In this document: positions 6,565-64,000 of the stretch, piece after piece
How the letters are laid out: each line of letters begins with the position of its first letter
Numbering within the stretch: position 1 is the stretch's first letter
DNA from: Heterodontus francisci
Lineage: Eukaryota
NCBI RefSeq assembly: GCF_036365525.1
Contig: NC_090401.1
Span: 61,948,868 to 62,012,867 of the forward strand
Direction of reading: 5' to 3'
DNA: 64,000 bases
Made by a program: the position numbers and the translations under genes
The notes under the pieces: model-generated
The model's input: the letters and a program-made list of their open reading frames with translations, nothing else
The model's database searches: none
Told to the model about the DNA's origin: nothing

Positions 6565-8190
6565 CTTTGCCCTAGCCAAATTGAGGTCAATGGGAATTAG
6601 GGGGAAAACTCTCTACTGGTTAGAGTCATACCTAGCACAAAGGAAGATGGTTGTGTTTGTTGGTTTGTTGGAGGTCAATCATCTCAGTCCCAGGACATTG
6701 CTCCAGGAGTTCCTCAGGGTAGTGTCCTAGGCCCAACCATCTTCAGCCGCTTCATCAATGACCTTCCCTCCATCATAAGGTCAGAAGTGGGGATGTTCAC
6801 AGATGACTGTATGATGTTCAATACCATTTGCGACTCCTTAGATACTGAAAGCAGTCCTCGTCTATATGCAACAAGACCCGGACAACATGCAGGCTTGAGC
6901 TGATAAGTGGCAAGTAACATATGCACCACAAAAGTGCCAAGCAATGATGATCTAACGATCTCCCCTTGATGTTCAATGACATTTAACAGCATTACCATCA
7001 CTGACTCCCCAACCATCAACATCCTGTGGGGGGGGGGTTTACCATTGATCAGAAACTGAACTGGAGCAGCCACATAAATATTGTGGCTACAAGAGCAGGT
7101 TAGAGACTGGGAATTCTGCAGTGAGTAAGCCAGCTCCTGTCTCCCCAAAGCCTATTCACCAGCTACAAGGCACAAGTCAGGAGTGGAATACTTTCCACTT
7201 GCCTGGATGGGCGTGGCTCCAACAATACGCAGGAAGCTCGACACCATCCAGGACAAAGCAGCCCTCTTGATTGGCACCCCATCCACCACCTTAAACATTC
7301 ACACCCTCCACCACCGACACACAGTGGCAGCAATGTGTACCATATATAAAGTGCACTGCAGCAACTGACCACGCCTCCTTCAACAGCACTTTACAAACCC
7401 AAGAACTCTTCCTTCCAGAAAGACAAGGGCAGCAGACATGTGGGAACACCACCATCTGCAAGTTCCCCTCCAAGCCACACACCATCTTGACTAGGAACTA
7501 TATTGCCGTTCCTTCACTGTTGCTGGATCAAAATCCTGGTTAGGCCACAGCTGGAGTATTGCGTACAGTTCTGGTCACCACATTACAGGAAGGACATAAT
7601 TGCTCTAAAGTAAGTACAGAGGAAAGATTAGATCGGCTAGGGTTGTTTTCCTTAGAACAGAGGCGGCTGAGGCGTGACTTAATTGAGGTATACAAAATTA
7701 TGAGGGGCCTAGATAGACAGGAAGGACCTGTTTCCCCTAGTGGAGAGGTCAATTACCAGGGGGCACAGATTTAAGGTGATTGGTAGAAGGATCAGAGGGG
7801 ACATGAGGAAAGACTTTTTCACCTAGAGGGTGGTGGGTGTCTGGAATTCACTGCCCGAATCAGTGGTGGAAGCATAAACTCATTTAAAAGGTACCTGGAC
7901 ATGCACCTGAAGTGTTGTAACCTGCAAGGCTACGGACCAGGTGCTGGAAGGTGGGATTAGATTTACAGCTAGTTTTTTCAGCCGGCACGCACACGATGGG
8001 TTGAATGGCCTCCTTCTTTGCCCTAACTTTTCTATGGTTCTATGGTTCCTGGAACTTCCTTTCTAACAGCTCTGTGGGATACCCACACTAGATGGACTGC
8101 AGCGGATCAAGAAGGCAGCTCACCACCACCTTCTCAAGGACAATTAGGGATGGGAAACAAATGCTAGCCTTTCCAGTGAAAGAATAAAAA
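6565..8190 (+). mobile_element. CR1/L2-group LINE ('family B') 3' portion, interrupted by a HER/CR1 3' fragment at 7540-8046
   Basis: RT motifs GVPQGSVLGP / F(T)DD and the family B tail AAGGCAGCTCACCACCACCTTCTCAAGG. The insert is flanked by a TCCTGG duplication (7534-7539 / 8047-8052) and ends in (TTCTATGG)n. Confidence 0.8.
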
Positions 8191-11100
8191 TAACTCAAAC
8201 ATAGAGGCTTCATTTTGAGAACAGCACAGCTACAGCTGCCGGTGTATCCTGTATGAAAATTCCTCTGACTGGCTGTACTAATGCATCAGGAAAGACAGAG
8301 TGGATATGGCAGAGACTTTCACAATCTGTGTGCGACACTATGAAAAAATCCTGCACAACATATTTTTAAAAACTGCAGATAACGGCCAAAAATTAAACTG
8401 CTTAGAAATAAGAATTTTGCAGAGCTTTAACAAACAATAACCAGAGAATATGATGAACTTTTAATTTCCACCACTTCTTAATGCAGTTGCTATTTCCTGC
8501 AAGTAAAAGCTTGACTGTTACAGCAGACCATTTTGTTGGAGATTTTCAATTTCTAAATTGCTGTAAGATTTAGCACATCTTGGGATTTCTTTTCTTTTTC
8601 CCTGTGAAAAGGAATAGAAAAAGATAAAATATCAAAATGACGCATCTATATATTTACTTGCTGTCATCTTCTAGACAATTTCATAGCTTCAAAAAGATCG
8701 ATCTCTGAGCCTTAGTCTGCTTTTATAATGGCAGTTATCAAATGGATTACTACAATAAAATGTAATTTTGTTTAAAAAAATTAAATTGCTCGAATTGCAC
8801 TGCAACTTTTCCAAAGGTTATTGTAGGCTAGACATCAATGAAAAGGAATACTGCAATGTTAATAATAGTTTCTTCTTTATTAAACATTATAACACCATTA
8901 CCTTCTCTATCATAAAGCTCTTATTAAAATACACACTTAATTACAACCTGATCTCCCGTGCTAGTAGAGCACAGCTGAGGTGCTTAGTGTGACAAGTGGA
9001 ACTTTGTATTTAAAATTTGGCATTGCACGTTTATTTTAATGAGTGTTCTGAGTGGTTGAATCTGTTTCATTCATATTTGCCAGACAGAACACACATACTA
9101 GAACAGAGTTAAGGTTTAATCATTTAATCATCATTTGAGTAAGCACAGAGGCTGAAGTAAAAAAAGTTTTGCATTGGACATAATCAGGAAAATTTTCCCT
9201 TTAAGTTATGCCAGTTTTCTGCTGTAACTTGGATGGGCAAAGGCAGAACACTGGACATCCTGTTAGTTCTCCATCCATTTCTGGCCCAGGAGAAATTTTC
9301 AGTGATACAAAAGCACTGCCCAAAAACTGGCAAAGGATAACCAAGTAAGGTGGCAAAAATAAAGGTATGTTGTATGCCACAACTTCGCTCACTACCATCA
9401 TTGCAACACTAGTATCAAGAGCATGTGGCTGCGGTCTAACATTGCTAGGGTTGTTATTATATGGATAAACAGATATTAAAAGGGATAAAACAAATTTTGC
9501 TACATTGGTATCTTCTCATCATTAACCTTGGTCTATCTACTAAATGAAAATTGTGAATACTATATATAAAAAAATAATGTACTGTTTAAGTCAGAAGGTG
9601 AGACAATAAATGGAACTGAAATTATTTAATTATTTTACAGAACAATCCCCTTTCAGTATTTTGGGTTGTTTTCAGGTTCCTGTGCAGAAATATTAGTGAC
9701 TCGATAATCTGTTCATTATTAACAGGCATTCTATAGAAATCCAAACCAAGTATAATCGAGCATTAATTGTCAAACCAATTATTCTCTCTTATCACGGTAC
9801 AACTGTACCTGGGTAGATATTGCTTTGCTGATTATTAAAGTGACATTGTTCAGCTGCACTCTTCAGTATTCTCTTTGCAACTCTGGTCTTCATCTGCTGG
9901 AGAAATATTAAACCAAAATATGAATTACAGACTACAAGCTATTATTCAACTGCTTTTGCTTTTCATCTAATAACTGATCATTTATTTTCTTTCTTCCCCC
10001 TCCTCACCTTTCTGTTTGTTGCAATCTTTTTCTATGTTCTGGATACTGCTTTGGTCATTTGATACCCCCTTGCTGCGTGGAAGTCGTGCTTAAAAGCAGC
10101 ATGAATTGGAAAGAGTGGGTAGGAGTGCTGTCCAAACTCTGCAGTTATTGTGATCTTGACCCCTGCCCCCCCCTGGGATTCACCATTGCCACAAGCCCAA
10201 GTGAGGCAAGTGGCCTGAGGTTTCTCACCATGTAGAGGCCCAACAGATGCCAGCAGTTCAGGTAAAAAATATCAATGAGACTCAGGTCAGCCTCAGGCTT
10301 CCAGGTTACAGCCCAAAATCAGGCCCAGACAAATTTCCACAGTTTTGTTAGAAATCTACTAGGTACATTCCAACAAGAGCGAAAGGTAAGGGAACCAATA
10401 ACAGGGCTCCTTGGATGACGAGGGAGAAAGAGATTCTGATGAAACAAAACAAAATGGTGTATGATGCATATCAGGTGAATTTTTCAAGTGAGAACCAGGT
10501 CATATACATGAAGTTGAGGGGGGAAGTGAAGAGCAAAATTATACTGGCAAAGAAAGAATATGAGAATAGAATGCCCATGGGATACTGGGGAATGTGGCAA
10601 GTTGGATCCAGAATTGGCTCAGGGACAGGAAACAAAGGGTACTGGTCGACAGATGTTTTTGCGAATGGAAAGTTCCACAGGGTTCAGTGTTGGGTCCTTG
10701 CTGTTTGTGGTATATATTAATGATTTGGACTTCAATGTGGGAGGCATGATTGGGAAATTTGCTGATGACACAAAAACTGGCGTGTAGTTAATAATGAAGA
10801 GGATAGCCGTAGACTCCAGAATGATATCAATGGTTTGGTTGAGTGGGCGGGGAAATGGAAAATGGAATTCAATCCAGAGAAGTGCATTTATGGATGTAAA
10901 ATAAAGTGACGGAATACACAATAAACAAGAGGATATTGAGAGGGGTAGAAGAAGCGAGAGACCTTGGAGTGCATGTCCACAGGTCCCTGAAGGTGGCAGG
11001 ACAGGTAGATAGAATGGTGAAGAAGGCATACGGAATGCTTCCCTTTATTGGCCGAGGTATAGAATACAAAAGCAGGGAGGTAATGCTGGAACTGTATAAA

Positions 11101-11308
11101 ACGCTGGTTAGGCCACAGTTGGAGTACTGCGTACAGTTCTGGTCACCACATTAGGGAAAGGACAAAATTGCTCTGGAGAGAGTACAGAGGGGATTTACAA
11201 GAATGATGCCAGGGCTTGAAAGTTGCAGCTATGAGGAAAGATTAGATCGGCTAGGGTTGTTTTCCCTGGAACTGAGGAGGCTGAGGGGAGACTTAATTGA
11301 GGTGTACA

Positions 11309-14302: not shown

Positions 14303-16321
14303 TTTTGTTTTTATTCATTCATGGGATGTAGGCATCTCTGGCCAGGCCAGCATTTATTGCCCATCCCTAACTGCCCTTGAGAAGGTGGTGGTGAGCTGCC
14401 TTCTTGAACTGCTGCAGTCCATGTGGGGTAGGTACACCCACAGTGCTGTTAGGAAGGGAGTTCCAGGATTTTGACCCAGCGACAGTGAAGGAACGGCGAT
14501 ATAGTTCCAAGTCAATATGGTGTGAGACTTGGAGGGCAACTTGCAGGTGGTGGTGTTCCCATGCATTTGCTACCCTTGTCCTTCTAGTTGGTAGAGGTCG
14601 CGGGTTTGGAAGGAGCCTTGGTCTAAGGAGCCTTGGTGCATTGCTGCAGTGCATCTTGTAGATGGTACACACTGCTGCCACTGTGCGTCGGTGGTGGAGG
14701 GAGTGAATGTTTGTAGATGGGGTGCCAATCAAGCGGGCTGCTTTGTCCTGGATGGTGTCGAGCTTCTTGAGTGTTGTTGGAGCTGCACCCATCCAGGCAA
14801 GTAGAGAGTATTCCATCACACTCCTGACTTCTGCCTTGTAGATGGCGGACAGGCTTTGGGGAGTCAGGAGGTGAGTTACTCACCTCAGGATTCCTAGCCT
14901 CTGACCTGCTCGTAGTCACAGTATTTATATGGCTACAGATCAGTTTCTGGTCAATGGTAGCCCCTAGGATGTTGATAGTGGGGGATTCAGCGATGGTAAT
15001 GCCGTTGAATGTCAAGGGGAGATGGTTAGATTCTCTCTTTTTGGAGATTGTCATTGCCTGGCACTTGTGTGGCGCGAATGTTACTTGCCACTTATCAGCC
15101 CAAGCCTGGATATTGTCCAGGTCTTGCTGCATTTCTACACGGACTGCTTCAGTATCTGAGGAGTCACGAATGGTGCTGAACATTGTGCAATCATCAGCGA
15201 ACATCTCCACTTCTGACCTTACGATTGAAGGAAGGTCATTGATGAAGCAGCAGAAGATGGTTGGGCCGAGGACACGACCCTGAGGAACTCCTGCAGTGAT
15301 GTCCTGGAGCTCAGATGATTGACCTCCAACAACCGCAACCATCTTCCTTTGTGCTAGGTATGACTCCAGCCAGCGGTGTGTTTTCCCCCTGATTCCCATT
15401 GACCTCAGTTTTGCTAGGGCTCCTTGATGCCATACTCGGTCAGATGCTGCCTTGATGTCAAGGGCAGTCACTCTCACCTCACCTCACCTCTTGAGTTCAG
15501 CTCTTTTGTCCATGTTTGAACCAAGGCTGTCATGAGGTCAGGAGCTGAGTGGCCCTGGCGGAACCCAAACTGAGCGTCACTGAGCAGGTTATTGCTAAGC
15601 AAGTGCCGCTTGATGGCACTGTTGATGACACCTTCCATCACTTTACTGATGATTGAGAGTAGGCTGATGGGGTGGTAATTGGCTGGGTTGGACTTGTCCT
15701 GCTTTTTGTGTACGGGACATACCTGGGCAATTTTCCACATTGCAGGGTAGATGCCGGTGTTGTAGCTGTACTGGAACAGCTTGGCTAGGGGCGTGGCAAG
15801 TCCTGGAGCACAGGTCTTCAGTACTATTGCCGGAATATTGTCAGGGCTCATAGCTTTTGCAGTATCCAGTGCCTTCAGTTGTTTCTTGATATCATGCGGA
15901 GTTAATCGAATTGGCTGAAGTCTGGCATCTGTGATGCTGGGGACTTCAGGAGGAGGCTGAGATGGATCATCAACTCGGCACTTCTGACTGAAGATTGTTG
16001 CAAATGCTTCAGCCTTATCTTTCGCACTGATGTGCTGGGCTCCCCCATCATTGAGGATGGGGATATTTGTGGAGCCACCTCCTCCAGTTAGTTGTTTAAT
16101 TGTCCACCACCATTCACGGCTGGATGTGGCAGGATTGCAGAGCTTCGATCTGATCCGTTGGTTATGGGATCGCTTAGCTCTGTCTATCGCGTGCTGCTTA
16201 CGCAGATTGGCATGCAAGTAGTCCTGGGTTGTAGCTTCACCAGGTTGACACCTCATTTTCAGGTATGCCTGGTGCTGCTCCTGGCATGCCCTCCTGCACT
16301 CTTCATTGAACCAGGGTTGGT
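14303..16321 (-). mobile_element. CR1/L2-group LINE family B, 5'-truncated ORF2 (RT) with few frameshifts
   Basis: ORFs 15474-16256, 14623-15477 and 14367-14819 join into one RT (QFGFR, LDIKAA.DRV, GVPQG.VLGP, FADD). One frameshift coincides with a CTCAC micro-duplication at about 15473-15490. Confidence 0.88.
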
Positions 16322-28754: not shown

Positions 28755-30869
28755 TGTTACGACCAAGTGAGAGGGGTCTAGGGGTTCCCTCTTAGCCTTG
28801 CCTGGTTTAACAGTAACAGGGTTTAATTTTATAAAAACACCATGTTTTAGCTCCCCCTTTAGTGAATCCTTGTTCATTGCTTTCCAATTGTAAGGCAAAG
28901 AAATCAATTCAGTCAGCTTTTCTTAGATTTTAAACAAGAAAGGTAGAAGTTTATTAGTTAATTAGACAGCATGGCTTTGTCAGAGGGAGGTCATGCCTAA
29001 CAAATTTGATTGAATTTTTTGAGCATGTGACTAGGTGTGTAGATGAGCGTAGTGCAGTTGATGTAGTTTACATGGATTTCAGCAAAGCCTTTGACAGGGT
29101 CCCACATGGGAGACTTATCAAGAAAGCAAATGCACATGGGATACAAGGTAACTTGATAAGGTGGATTCAAAATTGTCTTAGCTGTAGGAGACAGAGAGTG
29201 ATGACAGACGGCTGTTTTAGTGACTGGAAGCCAGTGTCCAGTGGTGTACCACAGGGATCTGTGCTGGGTCCCCTATTGTTTGTCATTTATATAAACGACA
29301 TAGATGACTATGTGGGGGGTAGGATCAGTAAGTTTGCGGATGACACAAAGATTGGCCGAGTGGTTAACAGTGAGGTGGAGTGTCTTAGGTTACAGGAAGA
29401 TATAGACAGGATGGTCAAATGGACAGAAAAGTGGCAGTTGGAATTTAACGCTGAAAAGTGTGAGGTGATACACTTTGGAAGGAGTAATGTGACACGGATG
29501 TATTCAATGAACGGCTTGACACTGGGAAGTTCCGAGGAACAAAGGGACCTTGGCGTGTTTATCCATAGATCTCTGAAGGCAGAAGGGCAGGTTAATAGGG
29601 TGGTGAAAAAGGCATAAATTGCCTTTATCAATCGAGGCATAGATTACAAAAGCAGGGAGGTCATGTTGGAGTTGTACAGAACTTTGGTAAGGCCACAGCT
29701 GGAGTACTGTGTGCAATTCTGGTCGCCACATTATAGGAAGGATGTGATTGCACTGGAGGGGATGCAGAGGCGATTCACCAGGATGTTGCCTGGGATGGAA
29801 CATTTAAGCTATGAAGAGAGGTTGGATAGGCTTGGGTTGTTTTCGCTGGAGCAGAGAAGACTGAGGGGTGACCTGATTGAGGTGTACAAGATTTTGAGGG
29901 GCATGGACAGGGTGGGTAGGGAGCAACTGTTCCCCTTAGCTGAAGGGTCAGTTACGAGGGGTCACAAGTTTAAGGTGAGAGGCGGGAGGTTTAAGGGGGA
30001 TTTGAGGAAGAACATTTTTACCCAGAGGATGTTGATGGTCTGGAATGCCCTGCCTGGGAGGGTGGTAGAGGCAGGTTGCCTCACATCCTTTAAAAAGTAC
30101 CTGGATGAGCACTTGGCACGTCATAACATTCAAGGCTATGGGCCAAGTGCTGGCAAATGGGATTAGGTAGACAGGTCAGGTATTTTAATGTATCAGTGCA
30201 AACTCGATGGGCCGAAGGGCCTCTTCTGCACTGTATTATTCTGTGGTTCTGTGAATCTTAAACTCTAATCTGGTTACCAACTACGAATATGCGACGCGAC
30301 CACGCTGGCATGCATACGCGATAAACACACAGGCAGATAGAGACAGAAAAGGTAGAAGGAATAAAGATGAAAAATTTGAGGCAATATCTGGTTTCGCCTT
30401 GTTTCAACGTTGGAGTCTTTTCTCTCTGGAAGCTTGCATGTCTTCTGTGGGCCTGGTGGCTTGGGAGAAAGTGAGAGAGGCTTCCTTGTTCCAGCTTTAG
30501 TTTCAAACTGCCTTCTGAATTCAAACAATCCTGTGGCTAGTTCAAAAAACCTGGACCGGCCAGTTAGTCATGTGACCAGCTGGTATAACCAGTCCTGGGT
30601 CTGTGGATTGTATCTTCTTAGCAGGGCTTGGAATGCACTTCCTTACACCTTCCCAATATCTGGTGATCAAAATCCATTTGGATTAATTGGAGCAGGGAAT
30701 AGTCCTTTGTCTCTACAAGCAGCATCTCTTAGTATGCAAATGTCCTTCCAGCCCTGTGTCTGGTGATCTTCAAACAAATCATTTCTTCATTCCAGCAACA
30801 GTTTAAAATCAATGTTCATATGACAAAATTAATATGCCTCATTCTTGGCAGGTGGGGGTCTGCATGACA
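28755..30869 (-). mobile_element. Solo LTR (Gypsy-like) with nested CR1
   Basis: TG...CA termini (TGTTACG...CATGACA) with a 4-bp TSD GCAC at 28751-28754 and 30870-30873. AATAAA on the minus strand at about 28950. Confidence 0.7.
28960..30254 (+). mobile_element. HER/CR1 LINE 3' portion nested in solo LTR
   Basis: ORFs 29006-29617 and 29663-30166 (DFSKAFD, GVPQGSVLGP, KFADDTK, LEYCVQFWSPH) and a (TTCTGTGG) tail. Confidence 0.88.
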
Positions 30870-44684: not shown

Positions 44685-55929
<11,245 letters not shown>

Positions 55930-56934: not shown

Positions 56935-57391
56935 AAGAACCACTTGCATTTATGTACCACCTTTCATTACCACCGGACATCTCAAAACATTTTATAGTCA
57001 ATGAACTAATTTTTTGAAGTGTAGTCACCGTTGTAATGCAGGAGATGCGACAGCCAGGATGCACACAGCAAACTGTAACAAACAGCAATGTGATAATGAA
57101 CAGATAATCTGTTTTTGTGGTGTTGATTGAGGGATAAATATTGGTCAGGACACTTGGGAGAACTCCCCTGCTCTTCGAAATAGTGCCATGGGATCTTTTA
57201 CATCCACCCAAACAAGCAGAGGGGGCCTTGGCCTAACGTTTCATCCAAAAGATGACAGTTCAGATAGTGCAGTGTTCCCTCAGTACTACGATGGAGTGTT
57301 AGCCTTGATTTTTGCACCCAAGCCCTGGAGTGGGACTTGAACCTGAAACTGCGTGACCTAAAGGTGCTACCCACTGAGCCACAGCTGACAC
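56935..57391 (-). mobile_element. Deu-domain SINE (SacSINE1-like), near full length
   Basis: Minus strand shows a tRNA head (GTGGCTCAGTGGGTAGCA...GGTTCAAGTCCCAC), a Deu-like core (AAAAGATCCCATGGCACTATTTCGAAGAGCAGGGGAGTTCTCCC) and an L2-like tail. Confidence 0.7.
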
Positions 57392-57446
57392 AGAGATAGG
57401 GAGGGGTACATAGGTCCCTGAAGGTGGCTGGATGGTTAAGGTGGTC

Positions 57447-57462
57447 AAGAAGGCATATGGGA
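57447..57462 (+). repeat. Left copy of 16-bp target-site duplication
   Basis: AAGAAGGCATATGGGA, identical at 63533-63548. Confidence 0.92.
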
Positions 57463-57514
57463 TCGCTTCTCGGCCTTTTGGTTAAGATCAAGTGTAGTAT
57501 CTGTTCTTATCAGT
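57462..57514 (+). ncRNA. RNU2: U2 snRNA 5' fragment (nt 1-53), fused to the retrotransposon 5' end; not a functional U2 gene
   Basis: ATCGCTTCTCGGCCTTTTGGTTAAGATCAAGTGTAGTATCTGTTCTTATCAGT matches vertebrate U2 nt 1-53 at 52/53 (C21T). It begins exactly at U2 +1 and includes stem I and the GTAGTA branch-point pairing sequence. There is no Sm site or 3' half. Confidence 0.95.
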
Positions 57515-57577
57515 GCTTATTTGATTGAGAAGAGACCATGATCATTGCCTTTTGATCCTGGGGAAGCTTTGAGTAAA

Positions 57578-59104
57578 ATGGCTATAACCAATTTTCGAGC
57601 TTCGGGCCAGGGAGTGCGCAACACCGTTCGGGTGGTCGTGAAGGACAAGGAAGGAGATGCACTGGTCGATCGCACCTTCTTCATCAAGAAAATTCTCTTC
57701 GATTGCTGCGGATTTCAAGCGACGGACGTCTTCTGCCTGCAGGATTTCCCCAGCAATGGATACTTCGACGTGACGTTCCGGAACGTGGCGGGATGCATCA
57801 AGTTCCTGAAGGCGTTCAAGGAGAAAGGGGACCGGGCTCCACTGTCGATCCTCACAGCGGAGCCGCTCTTCACGCTTCCGTCACAACGGGACCGGGTGGT
57901 GACGATTCACCTCTACAACCCCCATGTTCCGGTGGTGGATGTACTCACCTTTCTCGCCAGGTACGTCGAGGTGGCCGGCAGCAGCACTGATGTCAAGGAC
58001 CCCTTTGGGATCTGGACCAGCAAGCGGCAGGTCAAGGTGACCTTGAAGGTAGATCCCAGTGGAGCCATCATCCACCCTCCCTCCAGCTTCGCTATCGGGG
58101 GAAGTCGAGGCTTTTTGGTCTACGCTGGGCAGCCCAGAGTTTGCTGCACCTGTGGCAAATCTGGTCACATGGCAGCCAACTGCAGCACGGTTGTTTGCAA
58201 GAACTGCAAGGAGGAAGGCCATCAGACCAAGGACTGTAAGCAGACTAAGTGTTGCAACTTGTGCGGTGCGGCAGGCCATCTCTACAAGACCTGCCCCAAA
58301 CGTTGCCTCAGCTATGCTCAGGCGGCAAGGTCCAAGGAAAGGCCGGGAGAAGGTTCGACGAAGGCGTCCGCTGTTCGAAAGGAGACCAGCAACCTTCTTC
58401 GCAGTGAGGAACTTCAACCTGAAAAGGAAGGGGAGGCAGCTGAAACCAACGACCCAGCACCTACCCAGCGCCCGGAAACCCCTCCTACACAGACAGAATC
58501 AATGGAGGAGGAGGCAGCAGATGGACAAACAGGTCAGTGGCAAGTGGTCCAGAGGAAAACCACAAAGAAAAAACATCCCAAAGCCACCACCCAAACCAGT
58601 GGCAAGAGGAGGCTCTCTTCTGAATCAGACTGCAACAACTCCTCTTCACTGGACGGGGAAATGCTGGAACGACAGCCCCTTCAAAAGAGGCGGCAGAACT
58701 CCGAGATGGATGATAAAGCATCCCAGCCCCCGGGCACTGGAAGCTGTGATGGGCCCGGCGTGCCCCAACCCCAATTCCCCACACGTAACGACGTGGCCAA
58801 CGCATCTCAGCTCCGGGACACCGGGAGCAAAGACACGTCTGGCGCACCTGAGCTCCGGGAGACCGGGAGCTGTGATGTTTTCGAGGAGGAACAGATGGAA
58901 GCAGCTATGGACAACCCAATGCTCTCTGCCTACAAGACCCCCCCGATGTCACCCGAGCGGCACAAACCCTGCATGAAAAATCAGGAGGGGTTTCTGAGCC
59001 CAACCAACGTGAAACTGCTTGCGCATACGATGGGTATGCAGGAACATCCCGAAGGGGAAGGACTGGGACTAGCGAGGACAAATGGTATGGGAAGCAACAA
59101 CTAA
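57578..59104 (+). CDS. ORF1p: Gag-like nucleic-acid-binding protein (ZCCHC3-like N-terminal region, 3 CCHC knuckles, disordered tail), 508 aa from the first in-frame ATG
   Basis: Knuckles CTCGKSGHMAANC, CKNCKEEGHQTKDC and CNLCGAAGHLYKTC, followed by SYAQAA and WQVVQRK...KRR motifs typical of Tx1/L1-group ORF1. Confidence 0.9.
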   Translation: MAITNFRASGQGVRNTVRVVVKDKEGDALVDRTFFIKKILFDCCGFQATDVFCLQDFPSNGYFDVTFRNVAGCIKFLKAFKEKGDRAPLSILTAEPLFTLPSQRDRVVTIHLYNPHVPVVDVLTFLARYVEVAGSSTDVKDPFGIWTSKRQVKVTLKVDPSGAIIHPPSSFAIGGSRGFLVYAGQPRVCCTCGKSGHMAANCSTVVCKNCKEEGHQTKDCKQTKCCNLCGAAGHLYKTCPKRCLSYAQAARSKERPGEGSTKASAVRKETSNLLRSEELQPEKEGEAAETNDPAPTQRPETPPTQTESMEEEAADGQTGQWQVVQRKTTKKKHPKATTQTSGKRRLSSESDCNNSSSLDGEMLERQPLQKRRQNSEMDDKASQPPGTGSCDGPGVPQPQFPTRNDVANASQLRDTGSKDTSGAPELRETGSCDVFEEEQMEAAMDNPMLSAYKTPPMSPERHKPCMKNQEGFLSPTNVKLLAHTMGMQEHPEGEGLGLARTNGMGSNN

Positions 59105-59117
59105 TTTTTGGTAAAAA

Positions 59118-62100
59118 ATGGGTGTAAGAATTGCTTCCATTAATGTGCGTAGCATTAAATCTACTACGCGATGTGTTTCAACCTTGGATTACCTTGCCAA
59201 GGTCAAAGCTGACCTACTGTTTCTGCAGGAGTGTGGAATACCACACCTCAGCACCTACAGGCAGTGGTCGCGATGGTGGTCCCACGGGCCATCGATCTGG
59301 TCGGGGGGTAATGACTGCCGTTCCTCCGGCCTGGGTATTCTGCTGCGGGGAGGTAACTTCACCATCTCCGAAGTTAAGGAGGTGGTGGGCGGCCGCCTCC
59401 TCGTAGCAGACGTGATGTACAACAACGCTCCGCTCCGGTTGATCAACGTGTACGCCCCGGTACAACGCAGCGAGCGGCTGACCGTCTTCCAGCAGCTCCC
59501 ACTGCTGCTGGCGACGTCCAGGCCGGTCATCCTAGGCGGTGACTTCAACTGCATCATCGATGCGGCTGGACGATCCGGCAGTGACGACAGCAAACTGGAC
59601 GCTACGTCCAGATTCCTAGTAGAAACAGTTAAGGATGCCAAACTGCACGACGTCTTCAGCAAACCTGCAGACGGAGCGCAGCGCAGATACACATGGTCAA
59701 GATCGGACGGGTCTGCCCGTTCCAGGATTGACTTCCTGTTTGTGTCCCGTGCTGTCACGGTCGGATCCACCGACGTCAAGCCGGTGTTCTTCTCCGACCA
59801 CTGCCTCTTACTGGCCGACTGTCACTTACAGGACGACCAGCGGGTTGGCAGAGGGACGTGGAAGCTCAATGCGACACTGCTGACCCCAGAGAACGTTGAG
59901 GAACTCAAAAGGGATTACAATGGTTGGAGGACCGTGAAACCCCTCTTTGAGTCTCCAGTTCACTGGTGGGAAGCGATAAAGGAGAACATCAAGAGGTTCT
60001 TCATCCACAAAGGTGTTCAGAAGGCGAGAGAGAGACAGAGGGAACTGTCCCGACTCCAGAAAATTATGCAAAATCTACTCCGGTTGCAGTCAATGGGGGT
60101 CGAGGTCAAGGAGGACCTCCAAGAGGTGAAGAGCCAGCAGGCCTCGCTCTTTGCCAAGGAGGCCTCCAAGATCATCTTCCGGTCCAGAGTCCGCTCCATC
60201 GAGCAGGATGAGACGTGCTCGCGTTACCTCTTCCAAAAGGTACACAGAGAGAGCTCTATTATCAGCAGCCTGAAGGAAGAAGATGGCTCGGTAACGTCTT
60301 CGCAGTCCGACATACTAAGGATCAGCAAATCCTTTTATGCTGGGCTGTATGACGCGAAGCCCACAGACAGCAGAGCCTCCCAGTCCTTCCTGTCATCTAT
60401 CACAGAGGTCCTAGATGACAGCAGGAGGGAGAGACTGGACAAGCCGCTAATTCTGGACGAGCTGACAAAGGCCGTCGAGTCTTTCGAGACGAGTAAAACT
60501 CCCGGGAGCGACGGCTTACCGGTCGAGTTGTACTCGTCCCTGTGGGACTGGGTCGGCCCGGACCTGCTGGAAGTATACGAGAGTATGCTCCTGGCCGGCA
60601 GCATGTCAGAATCCATGAGAAGAGGCATCATCACCCTCATTTACAAGCAGAAGGGGGAGAGGGCAGAAATCAGAAATTGGCGGCCCATCTCACTGCTTAA
60701 TGTTGATTACAAGATTCTGTCCAAAGTCATAGCCAGTCGAGTCAAGTCTGCTCTGGAGTTGGTGATTCACCCCGATCAGACCTGTACTGTACCCGGCAGG
60801 AAGATCTCTGATAGTCTCGCGCTACTCAGGGATACGATCGCCTACGTACGGGACAGGAGGGTGGACACCTGCCTCATCAGTCTGGACCAGGAGAAGGCTT
60901 TTGACAGGATATCGCACACCTACATGATGGACGTGCTTTCCAAAATGGGGTTTGGGGAGGAAATCTGCAATTGGATCCAACTGCTCTACACAAACATCAG
61001 TAGCGCAGTGTCAATCAACGGGTGGGAATCTGAAAGTTTCCCGATCAAATCTGGAGTCAGACAGGGCTGTCCTCTGTCCCCGGTCTTGTTTGTTTGCTGT
61101 ATTGAACCCTTTGCTGAGTCTATTAGGAAGGATGCGAGCATAAGAGGGGTGACAATCCCAGGCAGCGGAGGCACTCAGGTCAAAACCTCCCTGTACATGG
61201 ATGACGTCGCCGTCTTCTGCTCGGATCCGCTGTCCGTGCGCAGACTGATGAGCATCTGCGACCAGTTCGAACTGGCCTCGGGAGCCAAAGTTAACCACGG
61301 CAAGAGCGAGGCCATGTTCTTTGGGAACTGGGCTGACCGATCCTTTGTCCCCTTCACCGTCAGGTCAGATTACCTGAAGGTGCTGGGGATATGGTTCGGA
61401 AGTGCCGGGGCGTGCACCAAAACATGGGAGGAGCGAGTAGCCAAGGTACGACAAAAGTTGGGCATGTGGGGGCAGCGATCTCTCTCCATTGTGGGTAAGA
61501 ACCTGGTCATCAGGTGCGAGGCGCTCACGTTGTTGCTCTACGTGGCGCAGGTCTGGCCCATACCCCACTCCTGCGCCGTGGCAGTCACCCGAGCCATTTT
61601 CCGCTTCGTCTGGGGATCTAAAATGGACCGGGTCCGGAGGGACACGATGTTCAAATCTCTGGACATGGGCGGGAAAAATGTACCCAACGTGGCCCTCATC
61701 CTGATGACCACCTTCGTGTGCGGCTGCATCAAGCTATGTGTAGATCCCCAGTACGCAAACTCCAAGTGTCACTACGTGCTGAGGTTCTATCTGTCCCCGG
61801 TGTTGCGAAGGATGGGCCTGGTCACATTGCCGCGGAACGCACCATGCAGTTGGGCGGCGCCGTACCACCTATCCTTCGTGGAGCAGTTTCTGCGGAAAAA
61901 CACCTTTGACCACCGGTCCATCAGGCAGTGGTCTGCACGGAATGTCCTCAAGGCCCTACGGGAAAAGGAAACGGTGGATCCTGTCGGATGGTTCCCCGAG
62001 CAGACCGTCAAAGTCATTTGGCGGAATGCCTCATCACCAGAACTTTCAAACAAGCACCAAGACGTAGCTTGGCTGGTGGTGAGAAGGGCCCTCCCCGTCA

Positions 62101-62525
62101 GATCCTTCATGCACACCCGAAGTCTCGCCCCCTCCGCACAGTGCCCCCGCGTTGGCTGTGGTGGGGTAGAGACGGTCGCCCACCTCCTCCTGGAATGTGC
62201 CTTTGCAAAGCAGGTGTGGAAAGAGATGCAGTGGTTTTTCTCAAGGTTCATCCCAAGCAGCTCTGTAACACAGGAGTCTGTGCTCTACGGGCTGTTCCCA
62301 GGGACGCACACCGAGACAAACATCAACTGCTGCTGGAGGACTATCAATTCGGTGAAAGACGCCCTTTGGTCTGCCCGAAACTTGCTGGTCTTCCAGCGCA
62401 AAGAGTTGTCCACCAGCGAATGTTGCAGACTGGCACATTCCAAGGTCCAGGACTACGTGCTGAGGGACGCACTAAAGCTTGGGGCAGCCGCAGCAAAGGC
62501 TCAATGGGGAAAGACCACAGTGTAA
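59118..62525 (+). CDS. ORF2p: APE endonuclease + reverse transcriptase + C-terminal zinc finger, 1135 aa, uninterrupted
   Basis: EN: SINVRS, FLQE, NVYAP, GGDFN, SRIDF, SDH. RT: PGSDG, WRPISLLNVDYKIL, LDQEKAFD, GVRQGCPLSP, YMDD. Zinc finger: CPRVGCGGVETVAHLLLEC. Confidence 0.96.
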   Translation: MGVRIASINVRSIKSTTRCVSTLDYLAKVKADLLFLQECGIPHLSTYRQWSRWWSHGPSIWSGGNDCRSSGLGILLRGGNFTISEVKEVVGGRLLVADVMYNNAPLRLINVYAPVQRSERLTVFQQLPLLLATSRPVILGGDFNCIIDAAGRSGSDDSKLDATSRFLVETVKDAKLHDVFSKPADGAQRRYTWSRSDGSARSRIDFLFVSRAVTVGSTDVKPVFFSDHCLLLADCHLQDDQRVGRGTWKLNATLLTPENVEELKRDYNGWRTVKPLFESPVHWWEAIKENIKRFFIHKGVQKARERQRELSRLQKIMQNLLRLQSMGVEVKEDLQEVKSQQASLFAKEASKIIFRSRVRSIEQDETCSRYLFQKVHRESSIISSLKEEDGSVTSSQSDILRISKSFYAGLYDAKPTDSRASQSFLSSITEVLDDSRRERLDKPLILDELTKAVESFETSKTPGSDGLPVELYSSLWDWVGPDLLEVYESMLLAGSMSESMRRGIITLIYKQKGERAEIRNWRPISLLNVDYKILSKVIASRVKSALELVIHPDQTCTVPGRKISDSLALLRDTIAYVRDRRVDTCLISLDQEKAFDRISHTYMMDVLSKMGFGEEICNWIQLLYTNISSAVSINGWESESFPIKSGVRQGCPLSPVLFVCCIEPFAESIRKDASIRGVTIPGSGGTQVKTSLYMDDVAVFCSDPLSVRRLMSICDQFELASGAKVNHGKSEAMFFGNWADRSFVPFTVRSDYLKVLGIWFGSAGACTKTWEERVAKVRQKLGMWGQRSLSIVGKNLVIRCEALTLLLYVAQVWPIPHSCAVAVTRAIFRFVWGSKMDRVRRDTMFKSLDMGGKNVPNVALILMTTFVCGCIKLCVDPQYANSKCHYVLRFYLSPVLRRMGLVTLPRNAPCSWAAPYHLSFVEQFLRKNTFDHRSIRQWSARNVLKALREKETVDPVGWFPEQTVKVIWRNASSPELSNKHQDVAWLVVRRALPVRSFMHTRSLAPSAQCPRVGCGGVETVAHLLLECAFAKQVWKEMQWFFSRFIPSSSVTQESVLYGLFPGTHTETNINCCWRTINSVKDALWSARNLLVFQRKELSTSECCRLAHSKVQDYVLRDALKLGAAAAKAQWGKTTV

Positions 62526-62793
62526 GGTTCCCCCACCAAGCTGGACTGAGGGGCTGGAACCATGGGAAACCCCTCGAACTGTATCGTTAATATTCTCAAT
62601 TGCTGTAAATGTAAAACTGTAATTGACATGACAATTGTGAAACGGAAGGGTTGGGAAGAAACTCATGACATTATTGAAAGAAACTGATCTCTTTTGCAAT
62701 GTTTGTATTTTTTCGTGCTGTTTGGAAACTGTTTGTCAATGTAATTTTTACAGATTTTTATGAATAAAGTATATTTTGGAAATATAAAAAAAA

Positions 62794-62803
62794 TCTGTTC
62801 TTA
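62794..62803 (+). repeat. U2 target-site remnant (U2 nt 39-48) between the two element copies
   Basis: TCTGTTCTTA directly after poly(A), identical to 57500-57509. Confidence 0.85.
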
Positions 62804-63534
62804 GCTTGGCTGGTGGTGAGAAGGGCCCTCCCCGTCAGATCCTTCATGCACACCCAAAGTCTCGCCCCCTCCGCACAGTGCCCCCGCGTTGGCTGTGGTG
62901 GGGAAGAGACGGTCGCCCACCTCCTCCTGGAATGTGCCTTTGCAAAGCAGGTGTGGAAAGAGATGCAGTGGTTTTTGTCAAGGTTCATCCCAAGCAGCTC
63001 TGTAACACAGGAGTCTGTGCTCTACGGGCTGTTCCCAGGGACGCACACCGAGACAAACATCAACTGCTGCTGGAGGGCTATCAATTCGGTGAAAGACGCC
63101 CTTTGGTCTGCCCGAAACTTGCTGGTCTTCCAGCGCAAAGAGTTGTCCACCGCCGAATGTTGCAGACTGGCACATTCCAAGGTCCAGGACTACGTGCTGA
63201 GGGACGCACTAAAGCTTGGGGCAGCCGCAGCAAAGGCTCAATGGGGAAAGACCACAGTGTAAGGTTCCCCCACCAAGCTGGACTGAGGGGCTGGAACCAT
63301 GGGAAGCCCCTCGAACTGTATCGTTAATATTCTCAATTGCTGTAAATGTAAAACTGTAATTGACATGACAATTGTGAAATGGAAGGGTTGGGAAGAAACT
63401 CATGACAGTATTGAAGGAAACTGATCTCCCTTGCAATGTTTGTATTTTTTGGTGCTGTTTGGAAACTGTTTGGCAATGTAAATTTTACAGATTTTTATGA
63501 ATAAAGTATATTTTGGAAATTAAAAAAAAAAAAA
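62802..63534 (+). mobile_element. Second, 5'-truncated Keno-like copy in tandem
   Basis: Direct repeat of 62065-62793 with about 15 substitutions and 1 indel counted by eye. It has its own AATAAA (63500-63505) and poly(A) 63522-63534, and a 2-nt TA microhomology with the U2 remnant at its 5' junction. Confidence 0.92.
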
Positions 63535-63548
63535 GAAGGCATATGGGA
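63533..63548 (+). repeat. Right copy of 16-bp target-site duplication
   Basis: AAGAAGGCATATGGGA after the final poly(A). Confidence 0.92.
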
Positions 63549-64000
63549 CAATTGCTTTTATTAGCTGAGGCATAGGATATAAGAGCTGGAATGTTATGCT
63601 GAAACTGTATAAATCACTGGTTAGGCCACAGCTGGAGTACAGCGCACAGTTCTGGCCACCACACTATAGGAAAGATGTAATTGCACTGGAGGGTACTGAG
63701 GAGATTTGCAAGGATGTTGCCTGGACTGGACAATTTGTTTTGAGGAAAGATTGATAGACTAGGGTTGTTTTTCTTTGGGACAGAGGATGCTGAGGGGCGA
63801 CCTAATTGAAGTATATGAAGTTATGAGGGGTCTAGATACAATGGATAGGAACACCCTATTCCCCTTGGTTGAGGGGTCCATAACCAGGGGGCATTGATTT
63901 AGGGTAAAAGGTAGGGTGTGAGGGGATTCAAGGAGAAATCTTTTCCTGGAACTCACTGCCTGAAAGTGTGATAGGGGTAGAAGCCTTCATAACATTTAAA

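Follow-up and report, generated by a model that had tools for sequence, protein, structure and literature searches.

A Keno-type LINE of the horn shark that carries the U2 snRNA 5′ end outside U2 genes, and a probable route of its transcription

Introduction

Keno elements, like the shark element described here, have an AP-type endonuclease, a reverse transcriptase (RT), poly(A) followed by U2 snRNA sequence from nt 39, and an animal host. The 3′ flanks of both Keno and Utopia begin at this nucleotide according to excerpts of PMC4640811, and the U2 target site of the two is also given in part of PMC6136364; the hosts named for Keno in these papers are frogs, fish, lancelet, hydra and 'vertebrates', and the present host is a shark. 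Utopia has in common with the shark element the U2 site, 5′ boundaries that vary between families and members that stray off target, and differs in its restriction-like endonuclease, its usually single ORF and its unrelated lineage; a tandem insertion at a regenerated site of the same target is described for Utopia-1_NVit (PMC4640811, excerpts). R2, which resides in 28S rDNA, is co-transcribed with its target, and excerpts of PMC3774820 present a model, with experimental support in R2, in which target sequence on the cDNA anneals to the target upstream of the nick and passes on junction variants. R2 has a restriction-like endonuclease, and its 5′ end is freed by an HDV-like ribozyme. In crocodilians, the Tx1-related Tx1-11_Crp and SINEU carry U2-derived heads outside U2 genes. 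As far as excerpts of PMC4494074 go, these heads are put down to template switching, the families have a preference for Mariner-N4, the transcription source of the U2-headed elements is left as an open question, and co-transcription with a target is named as a strategy that also strengthens targeting.

Here, we describe a copy from the horn shark, Heterodontus francisci, analysed within a window, by which we mean the whole stretch of 64,000 nt at positions 61,948,868–62,012,867 of contig NC_090401.1 (assembly GCF_036365525.1, forward strand). The element is a Keno-type LINE of a shark and, as such, of a known kind. In contrast to Keno, this copy lies off target and holds U2 nt 1–53 inside its own target-site duplication. 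It resembles Tx1-11_Crp and SINEU in its U2-derived head, its probably Tx1-related nature and its position outside U2 genes. It differs from them in two respects: its head is traceable to the target gene, and its coding is autonomous.

Results

The U2-headed element is real and beyond chance. The inserted unit and its flanks comprise the following features:

57356..57462, + strand: left half of the split old LINE copy; the rejoined empty site aligns to three in-window copies
57447..57462, + strand: left target-site duplication, 15–16 bp; exact repeat of 63533–63548, final base = U2 +1
57462..57514, + strand: U2 snRNA nt 1–53, the inferred RNA 5′ end (Rfam RF00004; 52/53 identical to the intact U2 of L042)
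57515..57577, + strand: the element's own 5′ UTR, 63 nt, CpG-free, with a 5-codon uORF at 57538
57578..59104, + strand: ORF1, 508 aa, two ZCCHC3-type RNA-binding domains and a CCHC knuckle (Pfam PF23057, PF23058, PF00098)
59103..59111, + strand: AATTTTTGG, a match to the Sm-site consensus that overlaps the stop codon of ORF1 and is probably fortuitous (motif scan and shuffles)
59118..62525, + strand: ORF2, 1135 aa, intact, with AP-type endonuclease, reverse transcriptase and zinc finger (Pfam PF03372, PF00078, PF13966)
62526..62793, + strand: 3′ UTR, AATAAA at 62763, and short poly(A) of copy 1
62794..62803, + strand: U2 nt 39–48, downstream half of the Keno target, from the donor locus
62802..63534, + strand: second, 5′-truncated copy with ORF2 end, 3′ UTR, AATAAA at 63500 and poly(A)
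63533..63548, + strand: right target-site duplication
63549..63900, + strand: right half of the interrupted old LINE copy

Within the duplication, U2 nt 1–53, the full element, a short poly(A), U2 nt 39–48, the truncated second copy and a further poly(A) follow one another in this order. The element measures about 6.1 kb and has two intact ORFs. Alternative-frame ORFs of 154–220 aa also run within ORF1 and ORF2 (58314–58976, +; 61787–62251, −; 61988–62590, +), likely because of the high GC content.

An earlier note on this DNA had described a U2 fragment followed by about 63 nt and the ORF1 ATG, and both the Rfam match and the ORF positions, with the ATG at 57578, confirmed this. The U2 match at 57462 corresponds to model position 1 (59.7 bits against a gathering value of 46, E 2.8e-9). 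Compared with an intact U2 gene (locus L042), the divergence runs from nt 54 onward, and the sole change within the head is C to T at nt 21, which turns a G–C pair of stem I into G–U. Also as that note had proposed, the leader retains stem I, with this one altered pair, and the branch-point recognition hexamer, which we take to be U2 nt 33–38 (here 57494–57499), and lacks a Sm-like site, which intact U2 has at nt 98. Everything past U2 nt 53 is missing from the head, including the 3′ box region.

The upstream ATG at 57538 opens a uORF (MIIAF, 57538–57555) that is out of frame with ORF1; among 11 relatives (see below), a single one (L022) has an upstream ATG in its leader. In the UTR, 12 positions of a 13-nt stretch (57533–57545) match the start of the U1-derived SINEU-2 string found in an excerpt of PMC4494074, which may be chance. 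An Rfam E-value scan of 57505–57600 gave no support for a concealed U1 segment or ribozyme in the UTR, its only two matches being chance ones (E 2.4 and 7.9).

The family assignment rests on several traits. ORF2 contains PF03372 at aa 22–228 and PF00078 at aa 518–759, that is, the AP-type rather than restriction-like endonuclease and the RT of Keno. Tx1/L1-type LINEs typically have poly(A), a target-site duplication and an ORF1 that stands apart from ORF2 and encodes RNA-binding domains as well as a CCHC knuckle, and all of these were found. As to U2 specificity, the donor junctions are on target and the latest move, that of this one copy, is off target. A gene model of Heterodontus francisci shares 98% identity with ORF1, near-identical ORF1 gene models lie on several horn-shark chromosomes, and weaker matches come from other sharks, rays, sturgeon, lamprey and a newt; the best relatives of ORF2 are amphibian or unnamed proteins at about 46%. 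In a quick RT tree of 48 rows, none of them a named Keno and with the short P0053 left out, the window RT grouped with amphibian and unnamed proteins (support 100), and this group fell inside a set with the U2-embedded relatives L001, L026 and L030 (SH-aLRT 89, an unstarred node); L001 and L026 were the closest relatives by RT identity (45%). In shark gene models P0039, P0049, P0046 and P0077, pieces of the element are fused to host genes (ABCC5-like, DMBT1-like, cadherin-domain), and these fusions are probable annotation artefacts or exonised copies. A literature search returned no paper joining ZCCHC3-type domains with a Tx1 ORF1.

The copy sits outside any U2 gene, which the earlier note had missed. 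A direct repeat of 16 bp, made up of 15 bp and a base in common with U2 +1, occurs at 57447–57462 and 63533–63548, compared with a longest match of 8 bp in 200 random position pairs. It encloses the head, the element, U2 nt 39–48 and the second copy as a single unit. On removal of this unit, one continuous old repeat is restored, which we take to be a CR1-type LINE and which aligns across the join to three other copies in the window at 72–77%. Decayed LINE copies occur elsewhere in the window at 7531–7786, 10975–11306, 29072–30166, 52769–53379 and 14623–16256, the first four being of the same family as the split host repeat. Since the duplication lies outside U2 +1, the U2 5′ end belonged to the RNA that made the insertion, and in this respect the suggestion that the U2 5′ end serves as the mRNA leader is supported for the RNA behind the insertion; it does not extend to the present locus, where no U2 promoter lies upstream. 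A scan of 57100–57461 gave no octamer or PSE-like match. The copy thus records the mechanism and does not use it, and it is probably silent despite its intact ORFs.

The 10-mer corresponding to U2 nt 39–48 occurs in the window, with both strands searched, only at 62794–62803 and in the head. Its position directly behind the first poly(A) matches the Keno 3′ end, and its length of only 10 nt is due to interruption by the second copy, which overlaps U2 nt 47–48 by 2 nt. The second copy differs from copy 1 at 15 of 717 nt, and its five changed codons are all non-synonymous. No U2 sequence follows the last poly(A), which rules out the second copy as a later insertion at the present locus. A simple duplication is not favoured, although the 15 differences could be drift after insertion. 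The make-up of the unit indicates that a copy residing in a U2 gene supplied the template and that the cDNA ran to U2 +1. Moreover, the distance between the head end (nt 53) and the nick (nt 38/39) is 15 bp, as is the size of the off-target duplication, nt 39–53 likewise being 15 bp.

Relatives were collected in two sets, both on target by construction and not composed of independent lineages. The first set comprised 39 metagenome loci, retrieved by the pattern of a poly(A) stretch with U2 sequence from nt 39 behind it. Four of these (L013, L015, L021, L024) have no U2 continuation and no LINE match and look like chance. Most others hold the 3′ part of U2, in many cases together with a LINE 3′ end, and their 5′ end was unreadable owing to a short contig or a decayed element. 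At 13 loci, similarity to both ORF1 and ORF2 was present and the 5′ end could be read; 12 of them are distinct (L018 and L034 are 99.7% alike). L006 and L036 have ORF2 similarity and 2.7–3.1 kb of upstream DNA, with no ORF1 match and no U2 head therein, and L003 was too decayed to call. The second set, retrieved through the U2 5′ end, comprised 43 loci and yielded six further U2-headed LINE-like elements, whose heads span 21–33 nt and in one case about 49 nt as read by eye; four element-bearing U2 genes of this set share 70 nt of upstream sequence with the intact U2 gene L077. The U2 5′ pattern was found at no locus in viral contigs. Of note, L041, L053, L063, L064 and L077 represent several distinct U2-headed LINE lineages and intact U2 genes that share one promoter sequence, all within one assembly that bears a bacterial label; like most other U2 matches in the genome collection, they appear to be eukaryotic contigs within metagenome-assembled genomes.

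All 12 distinct full-length relatives start at U2 +1, a feature that was not selected for. Upstream DNA is common to unlike elements in L007, L010, L014, L017, L022 and L018. As the relatives were found through U2 patterns, their on-target placement is built in, and U2 +1 upstream of an on-target copy is by itself no proof of co-transcription. In the 11 relatives in which it was measured, the U2 match ends at nt 22 (five), nt 26 (four), nt 39 or nt 51 and never at nt 53, so a constant junction at nt 53, as raised in the earlier note, was not found among these relatives and the junction is family-specific. In 9/11, it stops at nt 22–26, before the nick, often trailing into changed U2-like sequence. 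The branch-point sequence emphasized in that note is present in the shark head and lost in these nine, which indicates that keeping it is not needed. The claim of almost no 5′ UTR also stood in part: the own UTR up to the first in-frame ATG (read by eye in L009) spans 37–62 nt in five of the 11 relatives and is longer, 118–344 nt, in the other six. As the two RT-closest relatives, L001 and L026, have UTRs of about 300 nt, the 63-nt UTR of the shark could be a truncated remnant.

A motif resembling a 5′ splice site, GTAAG, occurs in all six first-set leaders with an own UTR above 100 nt and in none of six short ones, the shark window included. The leaders with GTAAG are those of L001, L007, L009, L014, L026, L027 and L067, and the long leader of L041 lacks it; in L001 and L027, CAG stands just before the ATG, as in a 5′ UTR intron. 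Locus L027 (253–3484) is a U2-headed unit of 3.2 kb that combines ORF1 with only the last 290 aa of ORF2 and is either an internally deleted, probably non-autonomous derivative or a misassembly. In L047 (43–6562), a U2 head precedes about 4 kb without ORF1 similarity and then an ORF2-like frame, which makes it a differently built U2-associated LINE.

With regard to the cap, hypermethylation follows Sm-ring assembly (PMC12359035, in part), so a leader without a Sm site should keep its m7G cap. Escape from Sm assembly, as proposed in the earlier note, is plausible, and the RNA would keep its m7G cap and be translated. The same source also reports that mRNAs with Sm sites can take Sm rings, and the consensus occurs once in this RNA, in the 13-nt spacer between ORF1 and ORF2. 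This is at chance level, as 65/200 shuffles of the element hold one, and the site was rejected as a conserved signal given that no relative has one before ORF2.

The predicted fold of the shark leader has a z-score of −1.82, and the level of cross-pairing between UTR and head was reached by 53/150 shuffles. For the branch-point sequence, the prediction has most bases pairing with the UTR (unpaired probabilities of 0.12–0.19 for five of the six), a state that 18/200 shuffles reach. A 5-nt complement of U2 nt 1–5 occurs in 8/12 leaders against a shuffled mean of 1.6, the motif having been picked post hoc among related elements; in the held-out set it recurred in only 1/6, and in 5/6 when relaxed to 4 nt after the fact. 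The leaders in which the own UTR has a short complement of the first U2 bases with predicted pairing are those of L001, L007, L009, L014, L022, L027, L030 and L039. The UTR–head duplex energies are weak (mean z about −0.7), and folding of the UTR back onto the U2 head may be taken as a lead from modelling.

Discussion

The RNA behind the shark copy most likely started at U2 +1, in view of what the sequence shows: the anatomy of the unit, the duplication outside U2 +1, the split repeat, the nt 39 junction and the U2 +1 starts of the relatives. From the sequence, we infer the U2 promoter as the source of this RNA. We consider it likely that the element is a Keno-type LINE without a promoter of its own, which would be transcribed by Pol II from U2 +1 and, in the absence of a 3′ box, read through to the element's poly(A) signal. 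A donor copy would have sat in a U2 gene with U2 nt 39–53 duplicated around it, and a second, truncated copy would have entered the regenerated target behind the donor's tail. Initiating at U2 +1 under the snRNA promoter upstream, and with no 3′ box in its way, Pol II would have continued through the element, and the RNA would have been polyadenylated at the signal of the second copy, unless the RT jumped between two such RNAs. Finally, the U2-headed RNA would have been reverse-transcribed to its first base at an off-target nick in the old repeat, giving rise to the 15–16-bp duplication. The interpretation of the earlier note is partly supported, and its core idea has better evidence than was cited there.

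Such read-through has a parallel in human cells, where a U7 reporter without a 3′ box gave high levels of GFP mRNA and protein; transcripts of this type can be terminated by T-rich tracts (PMC11610936, excerpts). The first 1.5 kb of the element contains one run of T5 or longer. As in R2, the RNA would begin in target-gene sequence, and the genomic footprint, at the level of DNA, fits this trait. Unlike R2, the shark element would need no cleavage, as a Pol II snRNA start already forms its 5′ end; the Rfam scans matched no ribozyme family.

In a different account, the UTR of the family is longer or an internal promoter of compact size is present; the shark lineage would then either have lost part of its UTR and become fused to U2 or carry the U2 head as a passenger while being transcribed from a start of its own. 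We regard this as unlikely, while noting that it is partly compatible with transcription from the U2 promoter. The argument of the earlier note that about 63 nt leave too little room for an L1-type internal promoter applies to promoters of the mammalian L1 type only; other LINEs have compact ones, with 77 nt in L1Tc and a DPE at +28 to +32 in jockey, Doc, I and F (PMC4748587, excerpts). Six of the 11 relatives with their UTRs of 118–344 nt also speak for this account, as do the dispersed horn-shark ORF1 gene models and the CpG-rich start of ORF1 (observed/expected 1.11 in its first 300 nt and 0.92 at the start of ORF2), which together make some autonomy possible. Against it stand the five relatives with UTRs of 37–62 nt, the CpG-free 63-nt UTR of the shark and, in particular, the fact that the copied RNA reached U2 +1, upstream of any start internal to the element.

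Alternatively, the head could be a chimera produced by template switching or ligation, whereby the RT finished the RNA of an element with its own promoter, jumped to free U2 snRNA and added nt 1–53. Chimeras of this type also start at snRNA +1 inside one duplication, and 5′ addition of U1 and U2 pieces by template switch is reported for SINEU and human retrocopies in excerpts of PMC4494074. Their snRNA piece is present only at the 5′ end and unrelated to the target, whereas here U2 nt 39–48 lies behind the first poly(A), which a template switch leaves unexplained, together with the agreement between head end and duplication size and the 12/12 relatives behind U2 +1. We therefore judge this explanation to be quite improbable. 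Nor is the element a SINEU: the U2-derived head does lie within the duplicated mobile unit, as the U1- or U2-derived heads of SINEU do, but SINEU is short and non-coding, and two intact ORFs over about 6.1 kb are at odds with this. A DNA-level move or an assembly artefact, by which a piece of a U2 locus was pasted or misassembled into the repeat, is hardly credible given the 15–16-bp duplication, the poly(A) end, the exact U2 +1 boundary and the cleanly split repeat, which are marks of target-primed reverse transcription.

Under transcription from U2 +1, the head may, by analogy with R2, help 5′ joining on target. Annealing of the leader to upstream target DNA, which the earlier note had envisaged, fits the on-target relatives and had no part in the shark off-target insertion, whose 5′ join overlaps the target by 1 nt only. 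It would explain the lineage-specific replacement of U2 upstream of the nick in 9/11 relatives, and match ends before the nick are expected if junction variants are inherited through RNA with target sequence, as in the R2 model. Staggered cutting also explains such deletions according to excerpts of PMC4640811.

Keno, its site and its spread were already known, and the transcription route was to be expected but is apparently undocumented. No paper found in a literature search assigns the U2 promoter to Keno or describes an off-target copy with its boundary at U2 +1; Repbase, supplements and the 2004 Keno paper lay beyond the scope of this search and may say so, and the word 'promoter' is absent from PMC4640811. 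Co-transcription with the target and 5′ annealing are in print for R2 and suggested for SINEU, so the shark element extends a known strategy.

An off-target copy bounded exactly at U2 +1 amounts to a fossil 5′ RACE, as the start of U2 has moved along with the element. If the proposed route is correct, an snRNA promoter drives a coding RNA of 5–6 kb in nature, such elements stay active only inside U2 genes, and target-gene heads can be exported and seed new families. More tentatively, and with considerable doubt on our part, Keno elements might be promoterless LINEs that deprive a U2 snRNA gene of its Sm site and 3′ box and thereby make an mRNA gene of it, and copies that carry the U2 head off target might offer a direct route to U2-headed Tx1 families and SINEU-like heads that involves no template switch; in the boldest form of this idea, the UTR would have evolved to fold onto the U2 head and mask it, and the 5′ splice-site motif of the longer leaders would help the polymerase switch from snRNA to mRNA mode.
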